From Octopus vulgaris (lineage: Eukaryota), in assembly GCA_951406725.2 (NCBI GenBank), contig OX597839.1, positions 16,926,001-16,990,000 on the forward strand: 64,000 nucleotides of DNA, given 5' to 3'. This document shows, piece by piece, positions 14,241 to 19,975 of the stretch. The translations under genes and the position numbers were made by a program. A model generated the notes under the pieces. It was not told the origin of the DNA, did no database searches, and saw only the letters and a program-made list of their open reading frames with translations. Numbering within the stretch: the first letter of the stretch is position 1; each line of letters begins with the position of its first letter.

Positions 14241-15208
14241 ACCCTTTAGCATTTAAACTGGCTGCATGTCTATCCAAAATATTCTATTTGTTTAATGCTC
14301 AAACTGGCCAAATCTGGTCTCTTGCATGTACCCTAGAATATCATTCTAAAAATAAATAATCATATTGAAATTTCAAAGCTGATGAGATAATGTATAATAA
14401 ATTCAAAACGATGAGGAATAAATAAGCATTACATTTGACAGAGTAATCTGAATGCTAAAAGGATAAACTAGTATTATCCAGCCTAAATATTCTACCTGTT
14501 TTATATTCAAACAGACCAGATCTAGTATGTCATGTCTACCATACAATATTGTAAAAATAAACAGTGACATCATTGAAATCTCAAAGCTACAAAACAATGC
14601 ATGATTAATTAAAAACAGAGTGAATAAATAAGCATTACATTTGAGAGAGTAATCTGAATTCTAAAGCCCAAATATTATCCCGCCCAAATATTCTGTTTTA
14701 TGTTCAAACAGGCCACACTTATTTCTTTATTGCCCACAAGGGGCTAAACATAGAGGGGACAAACAAGGACAGACAAAGGGATTAAGTCAAATACATCGAC
14801 CCCAGTGCGTAACTGGTACTTAATTTATCGACCCCGAAAGGATAAAAAGCAAAGTCAACCTCAGCGGAATTTGAACTCAGAATGTAAAGACAGACAAAAT
14901 ACCTATTTCTTTACTACCCACAAGGGGCTAAACACAGAGAGGACAAACAAGGACAGACAAAGGGATTAAGTCAATTACATCGACACCAGTGTGTAACTGG
15001 TACTTAATTTATCGACACCGAAAGGATGAAAGGCAAAGTCGATCTCGGCGGAATTTGAATTCAGAATGTAAAGACAGACGAAATACCGCTAGGCATATCA
15101 CCCAATCATTGAAATCTCAAAGCTAGGAGATAATGCATGATTAATTCAGAACAATGTGAAGAAATAAGCATTACATTTAACAGAATAATCTGAATGTTAA
15201 AGGGTTAA
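14241..15208 (+). mobile_element. Tandem array of about 3 piggyBac-like MITE units, the last interrupted by a SINE B dimer (14718-15100)
   Basis: Ends accctttagcattt ... aatgttaaagggTTAA; repeated gaataaataagcattacatttga..gagtaatctgaat; further copies near 1082-1220 and 59790-60030. Confidence 0.75.
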
Positions 15209-16845: not shown

Positions 16846-17024
16846 TCTATATATATACATATATATAGCATCATGCACACACACACACTTGTTCACTTTC
16901 TCTTGTTGAGATCACTATGAATTATTTCCCCCTTCATTCAACCTCTCTTAATTATTATCACCCTTTCATTCAACCTCTTTTTTTTCCAATCATTCACCAC
17001 GTTGGACCACTGAACTCAACACGT

Positions 17025-17200
17025 TTTTATTTTTCATTCTCTCTCTATTCATTTCCTCTTATTCCTTTCTGTCAAAGAGCATAGGCTTGAAACATAAAAG
17101 ACTTTTCCATTTTCCCTGACTGTCAAACTAATACACTTGCTTGTTGTTCCTACACCTGTCTTTGTTTTTGTTTTTCTATTAAATTTGAACCATATATAAA
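17025..17200 (+). mobile_element. Short repeat family P1 (probable PLE pLTR end) with hammerhead-like motif at 17065-17100
   Basis: Five related copies in the window, most ending at or near TA-rich tracts. Confidence 0.7.
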
Positions 17201-17272
17201 TATTTCTATATATATATAAGAAAATAAAAATGGAAAATACGCACACTTACATGGTTATTGTATAATTTTTAA

Positions 17273-17309
17273 TGTATCGACCAGTTTCGCAATCGCTATT
17301 CATGATACA
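17273..17309 (-). ncRNA. Minimal hammerhead motif with A3-U8 core variant
   Basis: TGTATC-ATGAATA-GC-gatt-GC-GAAA-CTGG-TC-GATACA; perfect 6-bp stem I. Confidence 0.6.
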
Positions 17310-17394
17310 ATGTTTAATTTATATGAAAATATATTTTTCTTAAGAAGAAAATGGGTACATATTTTTTCTAATGAAATTCACGAGTGAATTATAT

Positions 17395-17595
17395 ATATAT
17401 AGGGAAAGTTTACGAAATAAACAAAAGACAAAGACAGGTGGTGTACAAAACAAACAGATGTATTAGTATTGCATTCAGGAATAGAAAAAATCTTTTATGT
17501 TTCGAGCTTACGCTCTTCTACAGAAAGGGACACAGAAAAAACAAGGAGAGAAACAAGGAGAGAAAAAAAATGTGTGTAGTGGCTAACGATCTATC

Positions 17596-19129: not shown

Positions 19130-19975
19130 TTACTTGTTTCAGTCATTTTGACTGTAGCCATGCTGGAGCACCACCTTTTAGTCTAAGAAATCGAACCCTG
19201 GACTTATTCTTTGTAAGCCTGGTACTTATTCTATCAGTCTCCTTTGCCAAACTGCTAAGTTACGGGGACATAAACACATCAAGATCTGTTGTCAAGTGAT
19301 GGTGGAGGGGCAAACACAAGCACACACAGCACACACACACACACATATACATATATCATCATCATCGTTTAACATCCGCTTTCCATGCTAGCATGGGTTG
19401 GACAATTTTGACTGAGGGCTGGCGAACCAGATGGCTGCACCAGGCTCCAATCTTGATCTGGCAGAGTTTCTACAGCTGGATGCCCTTCCTAACACCAACC
19501 ACTCCGAGAGTGTAGTGGATGCTTTTTACGTGCCACCAGCATGGGGGCCAGTCAGGCAGTACTGGCAATCACCTTGCTCAAATCTTTTTACACATGCCAC
19601 CGGCACAGGTACCAGTAAGGCGATGCTGGTAACAATCACGCTTGAATGGTGCCCTTTTATGTGCCATATATATATATATATGTATATATCTGACAGGCTT
19701 CTTTCAGTTTCTGTCTACCAAATCCACTTATATATATACACATATGTGTGTGTGTGTGCATATATTTGTGTTTCTGTGTTTGTCCCCACAATATCACTTG
19801 ACAACTGATGCTGGTGTGTTTACATCCCCATAACTTAGCAGTTCAGCAAAAGAGACTGGTAGGATAAGTACTAGGCTTACAAAGAATAAGTCCTGGGGTT
19901 GATTTGCTCAACTAAATGCAGTGCTCCAGCATTGCCACAGTCAAATGATTGAAACAAGTAAAAGTGTAAAAGAAT
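19130..19975. mobile_element. SINE cluster: family A (-) interrupted by family C (-, 19355-19666), followed by a family A tail (+)
   Basis: Homology to 52483-52900 and 45181-45615. Confidence 0.85.

Follow-up and report, generated by a model that had tools for sequence, protein, structure and literature searches.

The window is a 64,000-nucleotide stretch of Octopus vulgaris DNA. Its minus strand from 17309 to 17273 reads TGTATC ATGAATA GC GATT GC GAAA CTGG TC GATACA, letter for letter as in the original prediction. The core is A3 U4 G5 A6 A7 U8 A9 (A3 at 17303 and U8 at 17298) and is followed by a 2-bp stem II, GAAA, the stem III region ACUGGU and a GUC site, with the predicted cut between 17279 (C17) and 17278. 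The features of the locus are listed below, each with the evidence for it.

17273..17309, minus strand: minimal type I hammerhead motif with an A3-U8 core pair (sequence, descriptor against shuffles, paralogues)
17304..17309, minus strand: 5' strand of stem I, TGTATC, 6 bp, pairing with 17278-17273 (compensatory changes among subfamilies)
17273..17278, minus strand: 3' strand of stem I, GATACA (sequence, compensatory changes among subfamilies)
17289..17296, minus strand: stem II, GC-GATT-GC, with G10.1-C11.1 (sequence and subfamily comparison)
17280..17285, minus strand: stem III palindrome ACTGGT, ACCGGT in the family (paralogue comparison, self-duplex energy)
17210..17392, minus strand: 5'-truncated 3'-UTR/pseudo-LTR fragment of a Penelope-like retrotransposon, by its features of Neptune type (extent common with paralogues)
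17386..17575, minus strand: copy of another repeat, whose hammerhead-like motif (17523-17492) has U at core position 6 and a decayed stem III; outside the A3-U8 element
17019..17206, plus strand: inverted second copy of this flanking repeat, with a motif at 17069-17100 (G8 lost), outside the A3-U8 element

The hammerhead motif and its neighbours

The order of stems I, II and III about the core is that of type I, with stem III present only as an intermolecular palindrome. The invariant nucleotides (U4, G5, A6, A9, G12, A13, A14, the A15.1-U16.1 pair and H17) are all present. The consensus C3 and G8 are replaced by A3 and U8, which in the window copy make a Watson-Crick A-U pair. A type I descriptor that accepts any Watson-Crick 3-8 pair matched the window only at 17309-17273; when the window was shuffled 100 times in blocks of 2 bases, the mean number of matches was 0.0. 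The 37-mer folded no better than its own shuffles (z -0.04) and an Rfam scan of the window returned nothing at gathering score. Both outcomes are expected of minimal hammerheads, yet they make the lone copy weak evidence; the motif is settled because its paralogues keep A3-U8.

Stem III had been described as a decayed ACCGGT, and this is what alignment with the paralogues gives: the family form is ACCGGT and the window ACTGGT is a private CpG change, C>T at 17283. The self-duplex is worth -4.6 kcal/mol for the window ACUGGU versus -9.7 kcal/mol for the family ACCGGU. The surrounding fragment is 93% identical to the majority sequence of the young subfamily and 90% identical to the 3' end of a near-full-length copy (L303). 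It keeps just the final ~180 bases of the element, inside a TA run, and both the ORF and the tail are gone. With its weakened palindrome, the window copy is probably a degraded, stranded and inert fragment.

The two inverted copies reported on either side of the motif are real (17386-17575 and 17019-17206) and are 73% identical. The original prediction also counted three motifs within 500 bp. The count stands, with three hammerhead or hammerhead-like motifs spanning 455 bp; a meaning for the cluster is not supported, since the motif in the middle is part of another element that was inserted there. The flanking motifs belong to another repeat, and the cluster is thus best read as a nested insertion into the TA run.

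Other repeats were observed here and elsewhere in the genome. The flanking repeat reads CUGU-N-GA in 13 of 14 copies tallied among the fetched loci, apparently a family-wide A6U core variant. Its motif includes an additional A; stem II is 4 bp long and stem III is ACGU. In another repeat (L041:1120, L065:429) the core is a canonical CUGA-N-GA, an A is added, stem II has 6 bp and stem III is ACGU. Near the A3-U8 motif, a SINE-like repeat is duplicated in tandem (184 nt, 14717-15084), and there is a pair of 150-nt inverted repeats (19177-19326 and 19767-19916, 81%). Retrozyme-like tandem arrays of 359/360 bp, often in divergent inverted blocks, occur at L072-L100 (e.g. G000:C1:20002278-20004542); each unit has a canonical CUGACGA type I hammerhead with an ACCGGU stem III.

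A3-U8 as a family state

A DNA search of the same genome with 17215-17390 as the query gave 1303 candidates, 40 of which were scored (88-97% identity). ATGAATA is present in 38 of 38 aligned rows (the window copy included and one copy counted twice), and ACCGGT in most. The 40 scored paralogues were ranked on a query that contains the motif; pattern searches of the genome were therefore made with positions 3 and 8 freed. Exact-flank matching gave A3-U8 in 79 of 79 matches, against a control of 0. A wider pattern, with 3, 7, 8 and part of loop 2 free, gave 664 matches; A3-U8 is present in 95 of the 100 listed and the other five are single departures. C3-G8 was found in none of the 79 exact-flank matches and in none of the 100 listed of the 664. 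Old copies recovered by the upstream flank alone are A3-U8 in 24 of 29 cases, the remainder being G3-U8 (2), C3-U8 (1) or deleted (2). A3-U8 is a state fixed across the family and not decay. The earlier proposal of a natural compensatory variant is borne out: the segment has many copies, and none of those listed is C3-G8 or carries CTGAAGA. Matches to ATGAATAGCATATGGAAACCGGT, for which four loci were fetched, fall within the coding end of a different Penelope-like element (PLE), have no stem I and were discarded as chance.

The family falls into three subfamily grades, which differ in N7 (U, then A) and in loop 2 (GAAA, GATA and GATT, from older to younger). About 31% of flank columns changed between the old and young subfamilies and the hammerhead core did not. 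Between the majority sequences, none of the 22 constrained positions differs, against 82 of 266 columns in the flank (Fisher p 4.5e-4) and 24 of 100 when the near flank is taken alone (p 0.005); these comparisons carry some ascertainment, the young majority having been built from matches ranked on a motif-containing query. Four CpGs are kept between the two majorities, and the flank has two further 14-nt invariant runs. Within stem I, pair 2.3-1.3 passes from G-C (17/20) to A-U (8/11, 12/12 and 31/32), a switch that coincides with a 16-nt deletion on the 3' side, and pair 2.5-1.5 passes from A-U (8/11, 12/12) to G-C (27/32). The majority base at position 17 is C or A, never G, in family groups of at least four copies.

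The host element

Longer copies carry, upstream of the motif, a reverse transcriptase (RT), a CGRPNCGTC linker and a GIY-YIG endonuclease. The GIY-YIG domain (PF01541) scores above the cut-off in L003 and RVT_1 falls below it in L161 (E 2e-4). The order RT then C-terminal GIY-YIG is found in a single ORF in L303 and L307, and relatives have PF00078 together with PF01541. The protein relatives are RT/GIY-YIG proteins; the named ones are mostly molluscan, octopus among them. In the translations the CX2-5CxxC linker (CGRPNCGTC) is followed by CSGC..H..H, the CCHH motif of the endonuclease. Copies terminate ~70 nt past the motif in (TA)n, directly or via a tail of ~45 nt, and pairs of copies in opposite orientation are common among the exact-flank matches. 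Partial tandem/inverted structure, an optional tail and a (TA)n target are thus all present. The marks given for Neptune elements are RT then GIY-YIG, a CX2-5CxxC linker, partial tandem or inverted copies, a tail and a microsatellite target (PMC8557442). Judged by these features, the host is an endonuclease-positive (EN+) Penelope-like element of Neptune type, the linker being common to Nematis too.

At the 5' ends of elements the same UTR, motif and tail lead into a likely ATG, ~150 nt beyond the predicted cut. The motif lies directly ahead of the ORF start in 6 of 16 fetched 5'-end stretches; one of the 16 (L313, internally deleted) has two same-strand motifs, and none contains an intact full-length ORF. 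In 30 5'-end loci there was no signal of copies starting exactly at the predicted cut. The two same-strand motifs at C2:141.2 Mb (L156) do not enclose an ORF.

Related families with other 3-8 pairs

An endonuclease-related family found beside L043 has TTGAAAA (U3-A8) at the homologous place. Its stem I is clean in older subfamilies, and the youngest has an unpaired U. The first stem I pair is mismatched or shifted both in this youngest subfamily and in a U3-G8 family, so a clean fold is not kept by every successful family. A G3-C8 family gave 135 pattern matches versus 10 in the control and has a stem I of 6-7 bp with the same endonuclease upstream. A fourth family reads mostly TTGATGA, which may be taken either as U3-G8 or as a C3-G8 core into which a U has been inserted. 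Two apparent C3-G8 matches, whose family majority is this ambiguous TTGATGA, were not counted as C3-G8, and no unambiguous C3-G8 was found in the families of the clade.

With positions 3, 7 and 8 free, the genome gave 4756 matches versus 125 in the control; the pattern barred G before position 3, which dropped a tandem C3-G8 repeat. The first 100 listed are U-A (58), A-U (33), U-G (4), G-C (2) and unpaired (3), with C3-G8 in 0. When 78 distinct 37-mers (the window copy and 77 of 80 listed) were aligned without gaps, positions 3 and 8 were paired in 74 of the 78 rows, although the rows are related and pattern-selected and amount to about five lineage-level events. The expected stem cells are paired in 84% of cases, against 17-34% in slid controls.

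Several of the families were found with patterns fixing part of the core, and in trees the four clades are separate. Rooted on other RT/GIY-YIG proteins, A3-U8 groups with G3-C8 (100/98) and U3-A8 with U3-G8 (97/94). L292, a single U3-A8 copy, is sister of the A3-U8 family (97/93), and support at the next node falls to 90/79. This grouping weakens a derivation of the main A3-U8 family from G3-C8. L278 and L279 read ATGATTA, are ~87-92% identical to G3-C8 copies and are nested in the G3-C8 family (L278:1501 and L279; G000:C1:29228982 and C1:57178421); on this placement A3-U8 arose a second time, through two transitions within the G3-C8 family. The original prediction had A3-U8 arise from C3-G8 by two transversions. 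That step is not reflected in the relatives, which are G3-C8, U3-A8 and U3-G8 with none unambiguously C3-G8, and one A3-U8 lineage took the transition route just described; as the immediate origin, two transversions from C3-G8 would be unlikely.

The survey also recovered a very young U3-A8 PLE family (L101-L125, e.g. G000:C1:56540646-56541037; 96-98% identical, 2741 candidates) in which stem I is separated from the core by an unpaired U that is missing from older subfamilies; there is also a U3-G8 subfamily (L289, L290). A PLE family with a natural G3-C8 core and a GUA cleavage triplet (L193-L247) has several stem I/II subfamilies. Further U3-A8 motifs (L282, L283, L284, L292) have a longer stem II, of up to 5 bp, and that of L292 lies 654 nt past a related endonuclease. 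A metagenome scan gave three matches, none with stem I or a PLE protein, and these were put down to chance.

Discussion

We propose that the 37 bases are a decayed copy of a family motif and that RNA of the A3-U8 family self-cleaves slowly after GUC as a dimer, a reading to which sequence comparison leads us to give a probability of roughly 0.7. Two motifs, either the pseudo-LTRs of a tandem transcript or those of two RNAs, would pair via ACCGGU and so build stem III. In this fold A3-U8 would take over from C3-G8 the task of positioning the 2'-OH of nucleotide 8. The RNA would then be cut after GUC, ~150 nt before the likely start codon, and the cut would set the RNA ends. The active hammerhead fold includes a pair between positions 3 and 8 (PMC3884650), and the general acid is considered to be the 2'-OH of nucleotide 8 (PMC2920678); because the acid is this hydroxyl and not the base, A3-U8 could stand in for C3-G8. 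Minimal hammerheads of PLEs cleave weakly and only as dimers (PMC4209133), and a C3G/G8C double mutation partly restored cleavage of a PLE hammerhead (PMC11167929). A stem II of only 2 bp and a monomer fold that is not above chance count against cleavage, as do the single same-strand motif pair in 16 fetched 5'-end stretches and the published mutagenesis and insertion results given below. Przybilski and Hammann in 2007 reportedly found that two engineered type III ribozymes still cleaved with any Watson-Crick pair at 3-8, a pyrimidine at 3 being preferred in a context-dependent way. Short PLE hammerhead variants with a diminished stem III are said by Lunse, Weinberg and Breaker to cleave as dimers.

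The fold could instead be selected for a purpose other than cutting, with A3-U8 catalytically crippled but well folded and the motif acting as a structural or protein-binding element, for example in binding its own RT-endonuclease or in RNA dimerisation via ACCGGU. Pairwise mutagenesis of one type III hammerhead fits this, in that only the G3-C8 swap rescued and the other double mutants there had low activity (PMC9901934). Hammerhead mutants of a PLE were not impaired in insertion in vitro, for which cleavage is thus dispensable (PMC11167929), and non-cleavage functions were left open by the authors of PMC4209133. We nevertheless regard a purely structural role as unlikely. The conserved set is exactly the catalytic one (U4 G5 A6, A9, G12 A13 A14, A15.1-U16.1 and H17) with N7 free, G is never the majority base at the cleavage position in the family groups of at least four copies, and the 3-8 pair is part of the active conformation (PMC3884650).

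It is considerably less probable that the motif is a dead relic, in which two changes drifted into one master copy that was then passively amplified, so that conservation would reflect only a few master generations. Copies cannot be counted as independent, they decay freely once inserted, and the flank has invariant 14-nt runs of its own, all of which would suit such a history. A relic would not, however, be expected to keep its core through the change of ~31% of flank columns, to change stem I in a compensatory manner, or to belong to a clade with several paired 3-8 states and what appears to be a second origin of A3-U8. This covariation largely refutes the relic, and without selection on the active fold it is hard to see why both partners of a tertiary active-site pair should have been exchanged together repeatedly. 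A single functional unit made up of all three motifs in the 455 bp is scarcely credible, as proximity is all that speaks for it: the motifs come from different repeats and one is on the opposite strand, their stem III palindromes differ and are non-complementary (ACCGGU in the middle motif, ACGU in the flanking repeat), each of the three carries damage of its own, such neighbours are missing beside paralogues of the middle segment at 26 of 29 other loci, and TA runs terminate both kinds of repeat.

The octopus motif resembles the minimal hammerheads of metazoan PLEs in Cervera and De la Pena 2014 (PMC4209133) in being type I, in its pseudo-LTR location, in its palindromic and unstable stem III (the 15.2-16.2 region), in G10.1-C11.1 and in occurring mostly as lone truncated copies or close inverted pairs. 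It departs from their consensus in having A3-U8, with a purine at 3, and a 2-bp rather than a long stem II, with no extra nucleotide between 9 and 10.1; in contrast to the systems described there, several 3-8 states occur inside one clade. Natural 3-8 covariation, a 2-bp stem II and a weak stem III are shared with the variants of Perreault et al. 2011 (PMC3088659). Natural U3-A8 is known from that core-variant survey and from the Cercyon elements of Schistosoma, which are PLEs (PMC4209133); the passages of PMC3088659 cited here name only U3-A8, and A3-U8 and G3-C8 are not named in them. The PAc (Poseidon) element of Anolis (Frangieh et al. 2024, PMC11167929) also has a PLE hammerhead near the ORF start and a tail of 30-40 bp. 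In the wild type this hammerhead has C3-G8 and extends over the start of the ORF, whereas the predicted octopus cut is ~150 nt upstream of the likely ATG; its partly active G3-C8 swap was engineered, whereas the octopus swaps are natural. In Anolis no RNA-seq reads ending at the hammerhead cut were found (PMC11167929), which also counts against cleavage. In the literature searched, natural A3-U8 or G3-C8 was not found, and large PLE variant alignments may already include them.

No new chemistry is implied, since engineered 3-8 swaps are already known. The main interest lies in the 3-8 series of the related families, which supplies ready-made, context-matched constructs for 3-8 swaps. It touches the question of whether PLE minimal hammerheads work as ribozymes, given their poor cutting in vitro. 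Standard descriptors undercount such motifs, as C3-G8 is absent from the first 100 listed of the 4756 matches (G before 3 excluded). We put at even odds the broader reading that a PLE clade ran a natural 3-8 exchange series, A-U (twice), G-C, U-A and U-G, with the other catalytic nucleotides kept. These would be the first natural hammerheads with a purine at 3, such tiny motifs would have been selected as catalysts, and searches based on CUGANGA would miss thousands of ribozymes per genome. If so, the missed ribozymes perhaps include those of elements that have been called 'hammerhead-less'.
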